From: Candidatus Hermodarchaeota archaeon
GTDB taxonomy: Archaea > Asgardarchaeota > Lokiarchaeia > Sigyniarchaeales > SOKP01
Assembly: GCA_048885525.1 (NCBI GenBank)
Contig: JBHLLP010000009.1
Location: 1 to 57,132, forward strand
DNA length: 57,132 nucleotides
Reading direction: 5' to 3'
The notes below the pieces were generated by a model. It was not told the origin of the DNA, ran no database searches, and saw nothing but the letters and a program-made list of their open reading frames with translations. Position 1 is the stretch's first letter. Each line of letters starts with the position of its first letter. The translations under genes and the position numbers were made by a program. Of this stretch, positions 30,780-57,132 are shown piece by piece.

Positions 30780-32039
30780 ATGGCTAAAGCAAGTGAAATT
30801 GAAGAAAATAATGCTTTTGAAATGGGTAAACCTTATTATTGTAAAGAATGCAAACGTAATCATACAAAAGGGAAAATCTATAAAGAACACATAAATTTTG
30901 CCTTCTTTGAAAATAGTGAAGATAAAAATAATGCAGATGAAACTATTGAATTTTATGATTATGAGTATGATGATGAGGCAGAATTGGTAGAAACTTTTAA
31001 TGAAATTGATGATGATGCCAATGAAGCTGAAAATCAATTAGATGATGATTTAGATTTAGAAAGTGAAGATGAGTTAAATGATAAGGAAAGTATAAAAGGA
31101 TGCATCGATGCTGTAAAAAAGCTTCCTGGTGTTGGAGAAGCTACTTTAAATAAATTAATAAAAGCAGGATTTTCAAGTTTAGAATCAATTGCATTCACAC
31201 CTCCTAAAATTATACAAGAAGAGAGTGGTTTAGGAGAGAAAACAACTGAAAAATTAATCAAATCTTCAATGGAACAATTAAATATTGGATTTAAATCCGC
31301 TGAAGATGTGTGGGAACACAGAAAAAATATCGCGAGAATAACTACGGGGAGCCAAGAGCTAGATGGTTCGTTAGGTGGTGGAGTTGAAACAGGCAGTGTT
31401 ATTGAGTTTTTTGGTGAATTTAGGACTGGTAAAACTCAAATTATGCATCAATTATGTGTTAATGTTCAACTACTCAAAGAAAAAGGAGGTCTTGAAGGAA
31501 AAGCTTTATATATTGATACAGAGGGGACCTTTAGACCAGAAAGGATTATACAAATGGCTGAAGGATTAGATCTAGATCATAAAAAAGTGTTAAAAAATAT
31601 AGTTTTTGGGCGAGCATATAATTCTGATCATCAAATTCTTCTAATTAAAGAAGCAGCAAACTTGATTAAAGAAAAAAACATCAAATTAATTGTAGTAGAT
31701 TCACTTATAGGACATTTCCGAAGTGAATATATTGGGCGTGGTACATTAGCAAACCGTCAACAGACAATTAATTCCCATTTACATGATTTATTAAGATTAT
31801 GTGATATATATCCAGATTTAGCAATTGTTGTGACAAATCAAGTTCAAGCTAAACCTGATGTTTTTTATGGAAACCCATTACAAGCTGCAGGGGGTAATGT
31901 TGTAGCACATGGTTCTACAATTAGAATTTATTTAAGAAAAGGCAAGGGAGAACAAAGAATTGCAAAAATTGTGGATGCCCCCCATCTACCAGAGGGGGAA
32001 GCTATCTTCTCTATAACTGAAAATGGTATATCTGATTAG
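30780..32039 (+). CDS. radA: DNA repair and recombination protein RadA with an N-terminal zinc-finger/acidic extension
   Basis: HhH LPGVG, FxxA motif GFKSA, Walker [22 protein letters not shown], Walker B IVVDS and GGNVVAH. Confidence 0.96.
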
Positions 32040-32070: not shown

Positions 32071-32388
32071 TTAAATTCTTATTTTCCAACCATCTTTTTG
32101 AGTGAATTATATTTTTTCATCCTTATTCATTTGGTGAATAATTAAGTTTATTGGTTTTTCAGAAATAGTAATTCTTTCTCTAGCAGCTCTCTCTAAGGTT
32201 TTTTCAGTTAATTCTTTTAAGGATTTTACTGATTTTTGATCATAAAAAATCTTTAAAATTAAATTTTCAATTTTTTCTTTAATCTTTAATGGTACTAACA
32301 GAAATTTATTATTATCCGAATTAATTGAATGTAAACCCATACCCTGATCTTTTTCAATAGGAATAATTTTCAACTTTTCTTCTTCCAT
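32071..32388 (-). pseudogene. Small winged-helix-like protein apparently interrupted by TAA at 32107-32109
   Basis: The 93-aa ORF ends MNKDEKI*. The same frame continues FTQKDGWKIRI* to 32071, which resembles a wHTH wing. Confidence 0.4.
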
Positions 32389-32678
32389 TCTCAGAGATAT
32401 AATTCTCTTTTACAATAGAGGATTTAATTACGGAGGATTCATTCCCTTTTAGTCTTTTTTCCTTTTTCATTTTTTGTTTGTTACTGAATCAAATGAACAT
32501 TTTCAATAATAAATGAATGGACTTCTCTAAATATAATTAGTTCTTATTATAGATATAAATGTATTTACCATTTATAATAACTTTCCTAACTCATTAAAAT
32601 CAATTAAGAGAGATATCTACTCTAAAACAAATAATTAATTTATATTAGAATTTTAATTAGAAAAATAATAAAAAAAAA

Positions 32679-35600
32679 TTAAATCAGCTTTTCAAATTCT
32701 TTTGCTTTATTTGTTAATCTCTTCACTTCTTTTGTCATTTCATTTACACCTAACTTAAATATTTCCGAAGCAATTTTTGAAGATATCTTATATTTCTGAG
32801 CCGCTTCATTATAATTCTTATCTTTAGCAGCCAATTTTGCTTCCTTTTCAAGTTTTTTAAGCTTAATATTAAGATCTTCGATTTTAGTCATACGTATTAG
32901 ATCATCTAAAATTTGTGCATCGCTTGTTAATTCCCAGTTGGTTGCAATTTTTATAGCATTATGTAAAATTTTAATGGATGTATCATAATCTTTGTTTTTC
33001 TTTGCACTTAAAGCATTCTTCTTTAAGTTTTTAATTTCTTTCTTAGCTCCTTTTATATTATCAATTACTGCAGCTCCTGCTTTTGATTCTATTGGAGCAG
33101 AAACAATTTCTTGTTGTTCACTTAAACTCACAAAATATGCTTCTCTTTCAGCCGGACCTATTTGAGCAAGATCATTAACCAATTTCTTTCTCTCTTCTGG
33201 TGATAAATCAACCAATTCTGAAACTTTCTGGTTAATAAGATTCAATTCTTGCTGAGAAATTGGTGGTGCCTCAATACTAGTAATTTCAATCGGGATTAAT
33301 ATTTTTTTATCCCTTAATTCTTTAATCCCCATGAAAATTTCTGCTGTTTCTTTACCCGCCTTTTCCGTAGCCTCTTTTAATAAAGTAGCTATAAAGAAGA
33401 AATTTCTCTCTGAATCTTTCATCAAGCTATTTGCAATCTTCAATACCTCTCGTGATTGAGATTTTTTAAGAGTTTTAGTACTAGTAATTTCATAAGTTAT
33501 CTCATGTGGCAAAATAATTGAAGTATTTAATATATCATCAACGAGAGTTCCAGAATCTCTAAATATATTTAATTGACCTCTCCAATTCGGAAGTTCATTG
33601 GCATAAATCTTCTCAAAAACATGTATAAATTCCATTAAATTCCTCCGTAGAATGAGAGATGCTTTTTTTCCTAACACCAATGCAACCCTTATGTTTTCAC
33701 CATCTGAAAGGAGCAACATTTTATCGCCATATGAAATTTCATTTAATTCTTCTTGACTTACCAGATCTTTACCAAAACTGCTTATTGCTGAAATAAATCC
33801 AGAAATTAACTCGGGATCGATTTCTTCAGAACCAAAGGATTTGAAATAAATACATGTGCCCGTTCCCTTATATAAAACTAAAATATGCTCTAAATTAATA
33901 GCATCATCAAAAATGGTTTTTACTTCTGTTAGAATTCGTAATTTCTCTCGTTTTTTAGGAACAACAATACCCCGATAAATAGCTACTGATCCTCCAATAG
34001 CAGCAGCAGCAATCCCTGCAATTATCAAGTATGGTAAAATATCTTCAAAAAGAAAACCTGCTGGTATTGGAATAATATCAATATCTGAAATTTTAGCTGT
34101 TCTTCCTTTGTGATAATATGCACTATTTAATTGAACGGTTATATTCAATGTTAAAGTATCGCTATAGGTAGGTATTATAACTTTTATTTCTCCTGTACTA
34201 TTAGTGTAATAATCTTCAGATTCACCAACTCCATTATTATAGTATAACGTAATATTGATACTTGATCCATCAATAGGCAACCAGACAGAACCATCAAAAA
34301 ATTCTGCTCTGATAATAAGTGAAAATGGAAGGCCTGCATTCACACTTTCAGGTGGGTTTACAACAGTAATTCTAGTTTCATATTTATCTATAATTCTTAA
34401 TAGTAAATCTACACTTGTTACATTATTACCATTTTTTAAGGCCATTACTGTAAAGGAGTAATTACCAATGGATAATAGAGAAATATTTAAATTACCCGAA
34501 TGTAAGGAGATACTTTCGGATATTGTGTGCATTACATAACCACTTGCTAAGGTATCAATGTTTTGATAAAAAATAGAATAAGAGACACCTGTACCAATTT
34601 GAATAATAGTTCCAAAATGCACATCTGATGTGTTAAATTCAATACCAATATTACTTCCAATGAAAGTCTCATAAAAATTATCTATGATTGATGGTTCTAA
34701 TTGTCCTCCTGGATTTGTTATCGATATAATATTACTATTTGCATAAACAATTGTTAAATTGAAAGTTAGTGGAATTATTTTATAATTTAAAATTACGACA
34801 GATACGTTAATCAAATAATTTCCTACACCTAAACCGGATGTTGTTATAGTTCCAATATACTTTGAAGTAGGTGAATTAAATGTAAGACTATTTAGAATAG
34901 TTCCATTATCTCCTGTGCCCAAATTTATATATCTCACTAAATATAAAGACGCATCTCTAGCAATTGTCTTATTTAAAGACTCAGTATCAGTTATATTGAA
35001 TTCTAAATTAAGGTCAAGAGCTATGGTAGAATTGTAATAATTTCCGACTCCGGATGGTTCTAATTGACCTCCTTGATTTGAAATTAATATAATATTAATC
35101 CGTGAATTTATTAAAGTTAAATTAAAACTAAACGTAGTATTTTCATAATTTAACATAATAACAGTAACATTAATTATATAAAATCCAGTATCTGTTAATG
35201 CTGACGTAACAATGCTTCCTGAATGTGTGTATGGTGCTAATGGAATAAACCCGAGGCTTTCTTGAAGAGTTCCCGTCATTCCTGTGTTAATCTGTTTGAA
35301 AGTTATAATATAATCACTTGGAACTAGAGTAACTATATTATTATTCCACTCTGTATCCGTTATGTTGAATTCAATCGTTAGGTCGCTTCCTAAGAAGGTT
35401 GTATAATTATTTCCAATACCAGTAGGAATGAGTATCTCTTCTGGATCTTCTACTGAAATCATATTGATCTGACTGTGATTTCCTCTTAAATAAAATTGAA
35501 TGTAAGCCAAGCTCCAATTATAATCAGGGTATTTAGAGACATTTAACTGTAATGTATATAAACCTGAATTTTTCCCTGCAATGCTAATATTCAATTTATA

Positions 35601-38600
35601 ATTACCAGGTCCCGGTTCAGTGAATAAATCAAATCCAGGAAGCCATTTAGTGCCGACATAATAATCCTTAATATTAACATTAGTCTCATTTAATCCAACA
35701 ATTGGATTGTTATTTGTTGTATCGTTAAAGTAGAAATTTACCGATACATTAGTCCAAGTAGTCCGAGCAAAATCAGCATCATCGTTCCATGATATATTAT
35801 CAATTCTAGTTTGAATTATCGTTAATAGAATCGTTAAGGTAATTTTTTGGGATTGATTACCAAAAGCTGAAATACTAAAATTGAGTATGTAGGGATCAAC
35901 TCTAACCGTTACACTTGATGTTATAACATCGAGTGTATAATTACCATTACCATCATTCCAAATATAGTAATCAAAGCCAAAAGGTAGAGTAGCTGGTCCA
36001 AACGTATCATATTCAACGATGGGGTTTCCTTTTCTATCCGAATAATTGAAAGTATAAGTCACATTGAGACCTCCTTTTACTTCTATGAGAGGAGGATTAT
36101 TAAAAGGTGTAATCTGCGTCAAAATTTGGCGTTCAAAAGTAAAAGTCCTTGTTAAATTAATATAATTGGTTTTATTTGCTCTAATAATGATATCTACAAA
36201 ACCATAATTGTCATCAAAGTCAGCGTGATTAGCATAAATAGTAATATTATATGTGCCATCGTTATTATCCGTTACATTATCTTGTCTAAATCCCATACCA
36301 CTAATTGAGTAGCTTATGATAGATTCATTAATCCCTATAGATCTAGTATGATCCATGTATTCTATTAATATGTCAAAGATTTCGTTTTCTACATAAGATG
36401 TTAGTTGCTCAGGGGTATGAATAGTAAGAGTCGTATTTCCAACTACTATTTCTTCCAAGACTGTACTTGCTGTATAGTAATGTGTTTTAGTAATATTGAT
36501 TTTTATGTTATATTTAGCATAGGGATAAAATATTGGATCACTACAATTTACAGTAATATTATAAAATCCTCCGCTATATGGATCAATTATTATAGGAGTA
36601 TATGCTTGATATGAACTGGCTGACACTTCTTTTACATAAATCTTTGCTAGACCTTCATCAATTCCTTCATCATTCCTACCAATATCTTTGAAGGAAATTG
36701 TGATATTAAATATATCATCAGAATTGTAGTATCCTATTATAGGATCGGGAAATTTAGTAGCGCTTAAGCTAGTTTCTCCCGTAATATAAATTATAAATGA
36801 TATAGATTGATTGTGATAATAAGTTTTTTTAACATCTATGGTTAAATTGAAATAACCATAACCTTCAGTAGCAAAATCATCATCGCTACAATTTATAGTT
36901 ATATCATAATTTCCAAGGCCTTGATCAATATTACTAACTGGGGAATGAAGAGTTTGATTTATAAAAACTTCTCTTGTTGCACCAGGTATGCCAAGATCTT
37001 TAATAGTATCATTAAAAAATAAGGAGATTACAAAAGTTTCAGTTGAATTATAGGATGATTTTACAGTTGTTGTATTGAAAAGATCTGTCACTCCCAATAT
37101 TTTAAAATAAAATGTTTCAGTCTGATTATTATAATAATTACCACCAGCACTAATTGTTATATTATTTTGACCATAATTAAATTTAGAATTATTGCAATCA
37201 AAAGTGATATTATATTGACCATTAGTAATATATTCTACACTCTCATTAATAGGACTATAATCCTCATTATTAATTTTATATTGGATATCTGCATCTGCAA
37301 TGATTTGATTTTGCCCCGTATCATTATAAAAAACAGTAATATTAAATACTTTATTCGCATTGTAAATGACATTTGGTGATGGATAAAGAATTTTCAATGA
37401 TGTATCTGCTACAACTTCTATAGTATCTTCTAAAAACCCTGCATCAGTATAATTATTCCATCCTAATTTAATTCTAAAAACACCATATTTAATTACAGTT
37501 TTCGAGATATTCCAATCACCAAAATATATCTCATCTCCTGCATAGAAAGAATCATTGGTTAATGTATAGTTTAAGAAATTATTAATTTCTACAGGAGAAT
37601 ACACAGTAAGATTGATTAGACCATCATCTACGTATGTTGAGAATGTGGCATTAAGATGTACTATATTTGTATAATTAAATTTACTAGGAGTGCTAGTTTC
37701 TGTATACGCTGTCATACTTGGGAGAAGATTTGTCGATTCTGCTGTTAAATACCACAATGTTCCATTTCCTGCACCTAAAATATTGACTTCTCTATATCCA
37801 TTCCCTAATGAATGGTTAGTACTATCTGATGTTTTAGGAGTACTGCCATTAAATACTCTTATGCTGTGTTCATCCCACGTATCTGGTATTGTAAAATTAA
37901 TTTGTTTATAACCTAAACGAGAATCAAAATAATTTAATCCTCCATTCCGAGTTACATTCCATTCTACCGGTTGAGCATCTCCAGAAATAATAAATTTAGA
38001 ACTTGCTCTTAAATCTGTTCTTGTATAATTAATTTGAACTTTTGCAACATTAAAAGAAACATCCCACCAATCAGCTGTAACAGTAAAATCTAAATTACCA
38101 TCTGAATCGTTTAATTCATCACTTGGGTTCCAGTATCCTTTTCCATCTGCGACATTTTCTACGACAATATCATTAATTTCTAATCCTATTTGTTTTGGCT
38201 TTGGTGTATTGCTCAGTGGTGCTAAATCTACTTTCAGACTGAAATCATATGACTCAGGTTCACTTGTTTCGAGTGGGTTTCTGTATGAAATTGTTTCATA
38301 ACTATTTCCAACACTATCAATATTCCAATATGTACTTACATCACTTGAGGTAAGTCTAATAAAAAATGTATTATTATATGTTTCCGCACTACTCGCATTA
38401 AGTAATTGATTTAATCCCGTAAGTTTTAACCACACATCGGTGGTACTATCATTTCCGATTTGACCTAGATATGCCAAACCACCAGTAAGATCTGCATTTG
38501 GTCTAATATAACCACTTGTATATTTAGCACTATATACATCATATGTAAATATCCTACCAGCAGCAGTTGATCGTATATTTACATCAACTGCTTTTAAATA

Positions 38601-39056
38601 ACAGCTTGATGGAACCTCAAATGAAGTATAACAAATTGACGTTTCCAATAACCAATTAGTAAGGGGGCCCGGTTCAACATCTAATGCTTTGTCAGGAGCA
38701 TATATATCATTAATTGTAACATTTACAAAACTAGAATTAAAAGTAGGATATTTAGGAGAAGGTAGAGTAAAAGTATTATTATTTACATCAGAAGCGTTCA
38801 ATAAAGTATTGAATGAATTATTTAAATAAGATTGATGTAATGTTATATTCATACTCTCACCAGTACCACTATAGCTTGAAGAGTAATCTGAAGTTTTAAG
38901 CTCGTTAAATAATTCATATTCAGTTGGTGAATCTAAATCATTGTAAGGATTATTAAAGTTCGAAATAAATTGGCCAACATTCAAAAAACTTAGCGTAATC
39001 GTTATAAGAAAAAGAATTAGAATCCGTCTATTTTTTTTAATATTAGAGTTAAACAT
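32679..39056 (-). CDS. Giant (2125-aa) single-pass cell-surface protein: signal/anchor, Ig-like repeats, TM, cytoplasmic longin-like domain and helical-repeat tail
   Basis: Basic plus hydrophobic N-terminus; beta-rich repeats with abundant N-x-S/T; TM ILPYLIIAGIAAAAIGGSVAIY then PKKREK; HILVLYKGTGTCIY...DPELISGFISAISSFGKDL. Confidence 0.85.
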   Translation of the reverse strand: MFNSNIKKNRRILILFLITITLSFLNVGQFISNFNNPYNDLDSPTEYELFNELKTSDYSSSYSGTGESMNITLHQSYLNNSFNTLLNASDVNNNTFTLPSPKYPTFNSSFVNVTINDIYAPDKALDVEPGPLTNWLLETSICYTSFEVPSSCYLKAVDVNIRSTAAGRIFTYDVYSAKYTSGYIRPNADLTGGLAYLGQIGNDSTTDVWLKLTGLNQLLNASSAETYNNTFFIRLTSSDVSTYWNIDSVGNSYETISYRNPLETSEPESYDFSLKVDLAPLSNTPKPKQIGLEINDIVVENVADGKGYWNPSDELNDSDGNLDFTVTADWWDVSFNVAKVQINYTRTDLRASSKFIISGDAQPVEWNVTRNGGLNYFDSRLGYKQINFTIPDTWDEHSIRVFNGSTPKTSDSTNHSLGNGYREVNILGAGNGTLWYLTAESTNLLPSMTAYTETSTPSKFNYTNIVHLNATFSTYVDDGLINLTVYSPVEINNFLNYTLTNDSFYAGDEIYFGDWNISKTVIKYGVFRIKLGWNNYTDAGFLEDTIEVVADTSLKILYPSPNVIYNANKVFNITVFYNDTGQNQIIADADIQYKINNEDYSPINESVEYITNGQYNITFDCNNSKFNYGQNNITISAGGNYYNNQTETFYFKILGVTDLFNTTTVKSSYNSTETFVISLFFNDTIKDLGIPGATREVFINQTLHSPVSNIDQGLGNYDITINCSDDDFATEGYGYFNLTIDVKKTYYHNQSISFIIYITGETSLSATKFPDPIIGYYNSDDIFNITISFKDIGRNDEGIDEGLAKIYVKEVSASSYQAYTPIIIDPYSGGFYNITVNCSDPIFYPYAKYNIKINITKTHYYTASTVLEEIVVGNTTLTIHTPEQLTSYVENEIFDILIEYMDHTRSIGINESIISYSISGMGFRQDNVTDNNDGTYNITIYANHADFDDNYGFVDIIIRANKTNYINLTRTFTFERQILTQITPFNNPPLIEVKGGLNVTYTFNYSDRKGNPIVEYDTFGPATLPFGFDYYIWNDGNGNYTLDVITSSVTVRVDPYILNFSISAFGNQSQKITLTILLTIIQTRIDNISWNDDADFARTTWTNVSVNFYFNDTTNNNPIVGLNETNVNIKDYYVGTKWLPGFDLFTEPGPGNYKLNISIAGKNSGLYTLQLNVSKYPDYNWSLAYIQFYLRGNHSQINMISVEDPEEILIPTGIGNNYTTFLGSDLTIEFNITDTEWNNNIVTLVPSDYIITFKQINTGMTGTLQESLGFIPLAPYTHSGSIVTSALTDTGFYIINVTVIMLNYENTTFSFNLTLINSRINIILISNQGGQLEPSGVGNYYNSTIALDLNLEFNITDTESLNKTIARDASLYLVRYINLGTGDNGTILNSLTFNSPTSKYIGTITTSGLGVGNYLINVSVVILNYKIIPLTFNLTIVYANSNIISITNPGGQLEPSIIDNFYETFIGSNIGIEFNTSDVHFGTIIQIGTGVSYSIFYQNIDTLASGYVMHTISESISLHSGNLNISLLSIGNYSFTVMALKNGNNVTSVDLLLRIIDKYETRITVVNPPESVNAGLPFSLIIRAEFFDGSVWLPIDGSSINITLYYNNGVGESEDYYTNSTGEIKVIIPTYSDTLTLNITVQLNSAYYHKGRTAKISDIDIIPIPAGFLFEDILPYLIIAGIAAAAIGGSVAIYRGIVVPKKREKLRILTEVKTIFDDAINLEHILVLYKGTGTCIYFKSFGSEEIDPELISGFISAISSFGKDLVSQEELNEISYGDKMLLLSDGENIRVALVLGKKASLILRRNLMEFIHVFEKIYANELPNWRGQLNIFRDSGTLVDDILNTSIILPHEITYEITSTKTLKKSQSREVLKIANSLMKDSERNFFFIATLLKEATEKAGKETAEIFMGIKELRDKKILIPIEITSIEAPPISQQELNLINQKVSELVDLSPEERKKLVNDLAQIGPAEREAYFVSLSEQQEIVSAPIESKAGAAVIDNIKGAKKEIKNLKKNALSAKKNKDYDTSIKILHNAIKIATNWELTSDAQILDDLIRMTKIEDLNIKLKKLEKEAKLAAKDKNYNEAAQKYKISSKIASEIFKLGVNEMTKEVKRLTNKAKEFEKLI
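34390..35480 (-). repeat. Three tandem, about 120-aa intragenic repeats in the giant surface protein
   Basis: SQINMISVEDPEEILIPTGIGNNYTTFLGSDLTIEFNITDT / SRINIILISNQGGQLEPSGVGNYYNSTIALDLNLEFNITDT / SNIISITNPGGQLEPSIIDNFYETFIGSNIGIEFNTSDV. DNA GGTTCTAATTG recurs near 34693 and 35056. Confidence 0.75.
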
Positions 39057-56808: not shown

Positions 56809-57132
56809 TTAAATTACAATATAATCTTCTTTTAGTCTTTTTAACATTAGATTGTTTAACTCTTTAAAAACCTCTAAAACGTTATGATTCTCTAATGCAG
56901 ATGTTTTATAAAATCCTTCTAATTTTCTCTCTTCTAAGTAGTTAGAAATTAATTCCTCTGCGATAATTTCAGATTTTGTCGTCTTATCGATTAAATCGCT
57001 TTTGCTACCTACTAATATTATAGGAATCTTTGAGTCAACAGCATTCTCAATTAATTTTTCGTACCAGAAATCTAATTGATAAAATGAGGGGTAATTAACA
57101 GAATCGAATACTAATAAAGCTCCGTTAGCACC
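56809..57132 (-). CDS. Rab/Ras-like small GTPase, C-terminal half (5' part lies beyond the window)
   Basis: Translated by hand: GANGALLVFDSVNYPSFYQLDFWYEKLIENAVDSKIPIILVGSKSDL...FYKTSALENHNVLEVF...IVI*. G4 is SKSD and G5 is TSAL. Absent from the ORF track. Confidence 0.88.
   Translation of the reverse strand, partial: GANGALLVFDSVNYPSFYQLDFWYEKLIENAVDSKIPIILVGSKSDLIDKTTKSEIIAEELISNYLEERKLEGFYKTSALENHNVLEVFKELNNLMLKRLKEDYIVI

Follow-up and report, generated by a model that had tools for sequence, protein, structure and literature searches.

What does a giant archaeal surface protein do with a large folded tail inside the cell? An open reading frame (ORF) encoding 2,125 amino acids, at 32679..39056 on the minus strand of contig JBHLLP010000009.1 from Candidatus Hermodarchaeota archaeon (57,132 nucleotides, all analyzed here and called the window), raises this question. 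In eukaryotes, longin, winged-helix, and tetratricopeptide repeat (TPR)/MIT folds belong to small-GTPase and membrane-trafficking machinery. Judged from its sequence and predicted structure, the gene is real and conserved and encodes a type I, heavily N-glycosylated surface protein of a Lokiarchaeia-type archaeon. Its cytoplasmic tail is predicted to contain a longin domain and a winged helix, and homology searches show that this half of the tail is a reusable Asgard module found behind many different membrane proteins.

A giant type I surface protein

A sequence-only reading of this DNA had proposed the ORF almost to the base, with a signal or anchor, about 1,650 residues of sequon-rich repeats, a transmembrane (TM) helix at about 33960-34040, and about 420 cytoplasmic residues. 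All of these were recovered (Table 1). Since the G+C content of the surrounding DNA is only ∼28 to 30%, a 6.4-kb frame without stop codons is not a chance occurrence. Hydropathy analysis detected two hydrophobic segments in the whole protein, residues 10 to 32 and 1674 to 1697. The basic n-region and hydrophobic anchor at the N terminus are kept in 16 of 16 orthologs inspected, which indicates that the ATG at 39056, which starts the ORF, is the true start and that the shorter, 2,101-residue database version is not. N-x-S/T sequons number 78 in the 1,641-residue ectodomain versus 32.8 ± 4.9 in shuffled sequences (maximum of 49 in 2,000), and one in the 428-residue tail versus 2.8 ± 1.5 expected from shuffles. 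Thus, 78 of the 79 sequons lie N-terminal of the TM helix, 2.4-fold above shuffles, and the sequon density per 100 residues in orthologs is 4.3 for the ectodomain and 0.47 for the tail. This enrichment before the TM helix, together with the basic residues after it, places the ectodomain outside the cell and the tail in the cytoplasm. The sequencing runs that contain the stretch are sediment and soil DNA metagenomes only; none of those listed is an RNA run.

Asn, Thr, Ser, Ile, and Tyr are abundant in the ectodomain, and Cys is scarce. Sequence comparison and predicted structure show a unique head, two arrays of ∼110-residue repeats of the beta-sandwich type, and a membrane-proximal MG4-like domain. 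A BLASTP self-search of the ectodomain returned no internal repeats, and the arrays are visible only by windowed Smith-Waterman comparison, in which array A scored 101 to 120 at offsets of 110, 220, and 330 residues and array B scored 150 to 188 at the 110-residue offset (shuffled null, 31 ± 6.5). Searches with Pfam and NCBIfam over all parts of the protein found no model at its curated cutoff. Array A gave weak Filamin and Invasin_D3 hints below the Pfam cutoffs, and the subthreshold MG4 match recurs in a paralog on contig C11 of the same genome and in distant tail-bearing proteins; MG4 is also the Pfam family precomputed for homolog P0113. A feature search of the ESM Atlas with the head (residues 33 to 480) gave no usable match. 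Complete orthologs fall into length classes of ∼1,555 (n = 43), ∼1,870 to 1,900 (n = 32), 2,100 to 2,240 (n = 8), and 2,731 (n = 1) residues, which shows that the ectodomain changes length in blocks of about three repeats.

Folds of the cytoplasmic tail

The tail was modeled by AlphaFold2 from an alignment of 92 tail relatives, with a mean predicted local distance difference test score (pLDDT) of 85.8. From the membrane inward, the model contains a juxtamembrane helix, a longin domain, a winged helix, a three-helix unit, a low-confidence linker, and a five-helix bundle. The juxtamembrane domain had been read as longin/roadblock-like at about 33570-33900, and domain-wise AlphaFold and Foldseek analysis confirmed a longin fold in the predicted structure. 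In tail numbering, DSSP assigns strands at residues 25 to 32 and 38 to 43, a helix at 51 to 63, strands at 74 to 79, 82 to 88, and 92 to 98, a helix at 104 to 120, and short helices up to residue 151, giving the longin order β1-β2-α1-β3-β4-β5-α2(-α3). The β-β-α-β-β-β-α block corresponds to residues 1722 to 1817 of the protein (nucleotides 33606-33893), and the pLDDT of the domain is mostly 78 to 92. VIA-align matched the domain to Sec22b (1ifq; Z = 12.8, root mean square deviation [rmsd] of 3.2 Å, 125 of 127 residues), Sec22 (3egd; Z = 11.8, rmsd of 2.6 Å, 119 residues), synbindin (Z = 11.7), sedlin (Z = 10.8), a Lokiarchaeota Roadblock-Longin protein (8yqg; Z = 10.7, rmsd of 3.5 Å, 131 residues), and SRX (Z = 9.9 to 10.4), with sigma-adaptins also among the matches. 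The top 50 Foldseek matches in the PDB are almost all longin or roadblock proteins (zeta-COP, sigma-adaptins, VAMP7, Sec22b, Fuzzy, LAMTOR, MglB, and GATOR1 subunits).

An MglB-type Roadblock/LC7 identity was considered and rejected: the domain has no Pfam Robl_LC7 match, its helices after β5 are placed as in longins, and the roadblock proteins MglB and LAMTOR rank below the longins in the Foldseek comparison. A genome-wide search with Robl_LC7 returned 15 other loci, and this gene was not among them. The curated longin families (Pfam Longin, Sybindin, Sedlin_N, Clat_adaptor_s, and Fuz_longin_1) had no match in the protein at an E value of <1, and one of the 92 tail relatives has a subthreshold Sybindin match. 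GSH-S_ATP matched 34 residues of the longin domain at 17.9 bits, and the match recurred in 9 of 92 members; we took it as chance.

The domain shares its fold over its whole length with eukaryotic longins (Sec22b, Ykt6, VAMP7, sigma-/mu-adaptins, zeta-COP, TRAPPC1/2/4, the SRX domain of SRalpha, and Fuzzy/Mon1; Z = 10 to 12.8, rmsd of 2.6 to 3.2 Å, 115 to 125 residues), and as in the longin SNAREs, it lies on the cytoplasmic face beside a membrane anchor. In contrast to these proteins, the TM helix here is N-terminal rather than C-terminal of the longin, a SNARE motif is absent, a 1,641-residue glycosylated ectodomain is attached, and the sequence does not significantly match the curated longin families.

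The helical domain that the sequence-only reading placed after the longin proves to consist of a winged helix, which had been overlooked, and a small three-helix unit. The models predict helices at tail residues 169 to 185, 192 to 203, and 207 to 219 followed by a strand at 223 to 225, the three-helix core and wing of a winged helix that belongs to no particular subfamily. Folded separately, the domain aligned with Cdc6 (1fnn; Z = 7.4, rmsd of 2.8 Å, 71 residues) and with the ORC and MCM winged helices (Z = 6.6 to 7.1). Overall, the Cdc6, ORC, MCM, and LexA winged helices gave moderate Z values of 6 to 7.4 at rmsd values of 2 to 3 Å over 60 to 71 residues, and Foldseek returned weak MntR/MarR-type matches only. 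Fold searches with the three-helix unit and the winged helix together were dominated by the winged helix. The three-helix unit is present in full-tail orthologs and in soluble, tail-only relatives, and it is absent from two soluble ∼455-residue paralogs in the same genome.

A winged helix might make the protein a membrane-tethered transcription regulator or one-component sensor, which would bind DNA at the membrane or after proteolytic release while the longin, a PAS/GAF-like fold, responds to a ligand or to the ectodomain's state. Consistent with such a role are the fold itself, one distant homolog that carries the source label "predicted DNA-binding protein," ESM Atlas neighbors that pair the same longin with HTH_47, TrmB, or V4R domains, and a paralog in the genome with a weak TrmB match. 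However, neither the winged helix nor its third helix carries much net charge (median of 0 across the 92 members), the closest structures are as much protein-binding winged helices (Cdc6, ORC, and MCM) as repressors, and the domain sits between two folded domains on a membrane anchor. We consider a regulator very unlikely.

The order of longin and winged helix recalls NPRL2 and NPRL3 of GATOR1, in which winged helices accompany a longin domain (PMC3747258). The tail has the same order, a longin followed by a winged helix, and it has paralogs that could pair with it. GATOR1/SEA-complex chains are among the long Foldseek alignments with E values of 6e−3 to 2e−2, but with a template-modeling score of ∼0.2 and an rmsd of >20 Å over these lengths. 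NPRL2 and NPRL3 are soluble subunits of a eukaryotic GTPase-activating protein, whereas the module here is tethered to the membrane, and Pfam NPR2/NPR3 gave no match in the tail (E values up to 1) or in its relatives (E values up to 0.01).

The C-terminal bundle consists of two three-helix units that have one long helix in common (tail residues 347 to 381), and it is Lys-rich, with a net charge of +11. Its earlier label, TPR/MIT-like, is right without a finer assignment, given structure and profile matches to both. VIA-align scored the bundle at Z = 10.1 against the MIT domains of Vps4A (2jq9; rmsd of 1.6 Å, 64 residues) and of Sulfolobus (2w2u; rmsd of 1.3 Å, 69 residues) and at Z of ∼11 against the TPRs of LGN/Pins, with TPR proteins scoring equal to or above MIT and all values within the noise range (Z below ∼13) that the tool gives for helical bundles. 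By profile, the bundle matches the consensus TPR helix motif and also Sulfolobus MIT 2v6y (E = 0.012), and hhalign against the MIT domains of Asgard Vps4 aligned 33 columns at a probability of 52%. MIT domains (Vps4/CdvC, MITD1, katanin, and the calpain-7 tandem) and short TPR modules resemble the bundle in their three-helix units, in the helix motif x-[DN]-Y-x-x-A-x-x-x-Y, and in rmsd values of 1.3 to 1.6 Å. The bundle differs from them in having five helices, with two units sharing one long helix, in being very basic, and in lacking a Pfam MIT match.

If the bundle acts as a tandem MIT domain, the protein could be a remodeling or sorting receptor linked to the endosomal sorting complexes required for transport (ESCRT). 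Its basic, MIT-like end would bind the MIT-interacting motifs (MIMs) of two ESCRT-III proteins and would recruit them, or be sorted by them, where the ectodomain clusters, as in vesicle or protrusion formation. Genes for Vps4 and for two ESCRT-III proteins (C26:29462-29965 and C13:82791-83261) are present in the genome, the last three helices superimpose on the MIT domains of Vps4A, Sulfolobus CdvC, MITD1, and katanin (rmsd of 1.3 to 1.6 Å, 64 to 69 residues, 12 to 19% identity), and the calpain-7 tandem MIT can be aligned with the bundle as a whole. Five of the 92 relatives have subthreshold or borderline Pfam MIT matches (E values of 0.0016 or weaker), and one soluble paralog (on contig C21) reaches 29.7 to 30.1 bits, second in the genome after Vps4. 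Set against this, TPR proteins score equally in structure and better in sequence, the protein itself has no match to Pfam MIT (gathering score of 30 bits), the hhalign match to Asgard Vps4 is short, and the gene is not linked to ESCRT genes. An ESCRT-linked receptor is thus improbable in our judgment.

Table 1. Positions in the window of the features of the protein and of nearby genes
Feature	Positions	Strand	Basis
Signal peptide or signal anchor (residues 1-32), basic n-region then hydrophobic core	38961..39056	-	hydropathy; ortholog conservation
Extracellular domain (residues 33-1673)	34038..38960	-	sequon count; ortholog sequon density
Repeat array A, about five tandem ∼110-residue units (residues ∼473-1000)	36057..37640	-	windowed Smith-Waterman self-comparison
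Repeat array B, about four tandem ∼110-residue units (residues ∼1133-1560)	34377..35660	-	windowed Smith-Waterman self-comparison
Membrane-proximal beta-sandwich, macroglobulin MG4-like (residues 1566-1648)	34113..34361	-	Pfam MG4, 19.2 bits, below 24.7 cutoff
Single TM helix (residues 1674-1697), then basic K/R-rich stop-transfer stretch	33966..34037	-	hydropathy and sequence
Juxtamembrane helix (tail 4-24)	33894..33956	-	AlphaFold2 model; median net charge +2
Longin domain (tail 25-151)	33513..33893	-	AlphaFold2 model and fold comparison
Winged-helix domain (tail 152-232)	33270..33512	-	AlphaFold2 models and VIA-align
Small three-helix unit (tail 238-283), acidic	33117..33254	-	AlphaFold2 models; charge
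Five-helix TPR/MIT-like bundle (tail 304-427)	32685..33056	-	AlphaFold2, pLDDT 87-98; fold and profile comparison
T-rich run directly 3' of stop codon, likely archaeal terminator	32661..32678	-	sequence
Small downstream gene	32107-32480	-	
RadA/Rad51	30780-32039	+	
Ras-family GTPase gene, cut by window end	56809-57132	-	Pfam Ras positions 70-160

Distribution of the tail module

A word-indexed search found at least 119 proteins that carry the whole tail at 52 to 87% identity, all from Lokiarchaeia-type (Promethearchaeota) assemblies and including Lokiarch_08060 of Lokiarchaeum GC14_75. The median identity across orthologs is 71% for the tail and 39% for the best ectodomain alignment. Such a contrast between a tail under strong purifying selection and a rapidly evolving ectodomain suggests a conserved cytoplasmic partner. 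A HMMER search with the tail over 1.84 billion cluster representatives (E value threshold of ≤0.001) matched 1,191 clusters at 50% identity, and many of the matching proteins end at about tail residue 228. Among 151 Asgard genomes sampled, the full tail (profile positions 1 to 424) is restricted to the gene's own family and order, mostly at one copy per genome. The first ∼228 residues, comprising the juxtamembrane helix, longin, and winged helix, occur in 138 of the 151 genomes, including 72 of the 73 genomes of high quality, in several copies per genome and mostly at the C terminus of frames of 700 to 2,300 residues. ESM Atlas neighbors are 94 to 100% archaeal and mostly Promethearchaeota, with one weak row representing a bacterial cluster.

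The same tail follows FG-GAP propellers with immunoglobulin (Ig) domains, Big/MG4 domains, CHAT protease domains, and polytopic MFS-like segments. The survey that the sequence-only reading had suggested as a check, of different ectodomains on one tail, thus gave the expected outcome across the Asgard archaea. In the distant relatives P0200, P0222 (Odinarchaeia: P0257), and P0194, the longin and winged-helix tail follows either a CHAT protease domain or, in a layout like that of integrin alpha, an ectodomain with an FG-GAP beta-propeller and Ig-like domains. Soluble, tail-only forms of ∼420 to 430 residues occur in other Lokiarchaeia. This reuse of the longin and winged-helix half argues that its binding partner is a common cytoplasmic hub and not specific to one protein.

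The organism's own genome (3.58 Mb, 99% complete) was searched with a profile of the tail's longin domain, which retrieved 32 frames. Three are further single-pass, sequon-rich giants of 1,928, 1,307, and 938 residues, and five are polytopic membrane proteins with a C-terminal longin (C5:74184-75827, C5:76013-77683, C53:8194-10383, C12:5702-6808, and C26:24043-25023), one of them with a weak MFS match. The polytopic proteins indicate that the longin domain is a general cytoplasmic appendage of membrane proteins and not only of single-pass ones. Two soluble paralogs of ∼455 residues, C21:21294-22667 (L016:3295-4668, minus strand) and C4:5281-6648 (L017:3282-4649, plus strand), combine a four-Cys N terminus, a longin, a winged helix, and an MIT-like helical end and might pair with the membrane tail. 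Most sampled genomes of the gene's family have frames of ∼455 to 480 residues with a match to the same part of the tail profile.

Other paralogs connect the longin to nucleotide-binding domains. One 289-residue protein (C5:91029-91898; L022:3030-3899, minus strand) is a fusion of a longin to an Arf-like (Arf/Roc-type) GTPase (Pfam Arf, 4e−15) with a partial longin profile match (positions 4 to 59 of 104), and two proteins of ∼290 to 300 residues (C37:30745-31644 and C27:729-1601) have a full longin match and a divergent P-loop domain. A 130-residue paralog passes Pfam Fuz_longin_1 (34.7 bits versus a cutoff of 26.1), and others have weak Fuz_longin_1 or Sybindin matches. A 210-residue longin and winged-helix ORF (C17:19521-20153) was considered as a GTPase-coupled soluble relative and rejected because it has no adjacent GTPase; possibly it is a remnant. 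Five ∼650-residue paralogs with MalT-like TPRs and a C-terminal longin-like domain form a tandem array (C33:12900-23122; loci L013 and L014), with further members at C33:4478-6436 and C63:9615-14675. Ras-family GTPase genes lie 82 and 419 nucleotides from two members of this TPR-longin family.

Published work describes both an expansion of longins in Lokiarchaea and fusions of longins to Arf-like GTPases (PMC4917890, PMC10933270), with 41 longin-like domains in Lokiarchaeum, five of them fused to Arf-like GTPases (PMC4917890). The described Asgard longin and roadblock proteins, such as 8yqg and the longin-GTPase fusions, share organisms and fold with the protein analyzed here, and the tail profile retrieves such fusions in its own genome. 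They differ in being small soluble proteins or GTPase fusions (PMC10933270, PMC4917890) and not giant surface proteins. In the literature compared, which does not include the Lokiarchaeum longin survey of Klinger et al. 2016, we found no description of a giant surface protein with a longin, winged-helix, and TPR/MIT-like tail. The architecture, built from known folds, appears to be new.

Candidate partners of the tail

We propose that the protein is a scaffold or receptor that spans the membrane. The ectodomain, glycosylated and fast-evolving, would mediate contacts on a cell surface that lacks an S-layer, and the near-invariant tail would dock conserved cytoplasmic proteins. Longin and roadblock domains or their dimers serve as platforms for small GTPases or adaptor complexes (PMC3747258). 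This rule, the precedent of NPRL2 and NPRL3 (PMC3747258), and the longin-GTPase fusions in the genome make a platform for a small GTPase, an adaptor, or a trafficking complex the most likely role of the longin and winged-helix half, by analogy with characterized longins. The TPR/MIT-like end would most likely clamp a short helical peptide of a second partner, with an ESCRT-III-type MIM as one candidate. We favor this platform, including the possible peptide-binding end, with moderate confidence. The sequence-only reading had proposed a single-pass adhesion receptor that couples extracellular contact, for example with syntrophic partners, to small-GTPase signaling. Neither of the two outcomes named as refuting it was seen, since the juxtamembrane domain has a predicted longin fold and the topology evidence puts it in the cytoplasm. 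The surface protein with its longin tail stands, but the adhesion and the coupling stay conjectural, with no GTPase gene as a neighbor and GTPase proximity at the random level, as detailed below.

Several observations count against a GTPase or trafficking platform. The tail matches no curated sequence family in Pfam or NCBIfam. Some longins, such as the longin SNAREs, do not bind GTPases, and longins are part of a wider PAS/GAF-like group whose members are often small-ligand binders (PMC4917890). MIT and generic TPR or three-helix bundles are not separable by the Z values and hhalign probability given above. No GTPase, roadblock, or ESCRT gene adjoins the gene, which looks monocistronic from its sequence context. 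The genome has ∼69 small-GTPase frames, and longin-family genes lie within 1, 3, or 5 kb of GTPase genes in 6, 10, and 16% of cases versus 5, 10, and 14% for random genes. This null result fits a published remark on MK-D1, whose GTPase genes as a rule do not share operons with longin or roadblock genes (PMC10933270). Finally, synteny with P-type ATPase, ATP-grasp, and RadA genes is local to the lineage and mostly lost in a more distant relative.

The upstream neighbors in question are genes for an ATP-grasp_5 protein, separated from the gene start by a 236-nucleotide AT-rich spacer, and a P-type ATPase; downstream lie a small conserved ORF and RadA. In a relative with 81% tail identity, the gene order is the same, and at 56% tail identity, only the ATPase is nearby, ∼5 kb away. 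No GTPase gene adjoins the orthologs examined for synteny. The nearest GTPase gene in the window, of the Ras family, is ∼18 kb from the gene. The last 92 residues encoded by the small downstream gene are 57% identical to a 161-residue gene product at the same position in the relative. The N-terminal ∼35 residues lie in another frame beside an A-rich run, which may reflect a frameshift, an assembly error, or a shortened gene. RadA/Rad51 has 419 residues, with ∼100 extra N-terminal residues before the HhH domain, and the syntenic RadA of the relative has 327.

An alternative is a purely structural protein of the envelope or glycocalyx, with the ectodomain as a major component of the coat and a tail that only anchors, spaces, or positions the protein, for example through cytoskeleton attachment or self-association, with neither signaling nor a GTPase. 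A monocistronic gene with its own terminator, one ortholog per genome in most genomes of the family with a full-tail match, and a huge sequon-rich ectodomain with a variable number of repeat blocks all agree with this proposal, as does the presence of complex surface proteins in place of an S-layer in Lokiarchaea (PMC9834061). However, 428 residues in four folded domains, conserved at 52 to 87% identity, are more than a simple anchor needs, and the longin and winged-helix module also occurs on polytopic, transporter-like proteins and in soluble forms, which argues for generic docking. We rate a purely structural role as fairly unlikely. Archaeal S-layer glycoproteins share the glycosylated surface location but lack a large folded cytoplasmic tail, so that the tail of this protein is atypical among them. 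Eukaryotic single-pass adhesion receptors such as integrins offer a parallel, as an analogy only, in their large, N-glycosylated repeat ectodomain, single TM helix, and tail presumably docking adaptors, and ectodomains made of an FG-GAP propeller and Ig-like domains occur in some relatives that share this tail.

Extended to the family, the docking platform could be part of a widespread and undescribed Asgard transmembrane coupling system. Hundreds of surface and membrane proteins would share a longin and winged-helix tail that recruits a GTPase or adaptor hub, to which the Lokiarchaeales flagship would add an MIT-like, ESCRT-III-binding end. Such a system might be a prokaryotic precursor of receptor-adaptor-GTPase coupling in eukaryotes, with membrane remodeling directed by contact at the surface, for instance with a syntrophic partner. 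We offer this broad picture as possible but doubtful.

Longins, small GTPases, and ESCRT are central to ideas on the origin of eukaryotic endomembranes, and work on Asgard archaea has until now handled them as soluble components. In this protein, and in the Asgard-wide family that ends in the longin and winged-helix tail, the longin is physically tied to the inner side of surface proteins. "Candidatus L. ossiferum" has no ordered S-layer and displays complex surface proteins (PMC9834061); the protein is a candidate identity for these structures, seen by cryo-tomography on Lokiarchaeum cells. Its conserved and foldable tail of 428 residues is a concrete bait for cytoplasmic machinery linked to the Asgard cell surface. 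Should the tail bind neither a GTPase nor ESCRT-III, the widespread view that all Asgard longins are GTPase platforms would need correction. If it binds either, receptor-to-trafficking coupling would predate eukaryotes.

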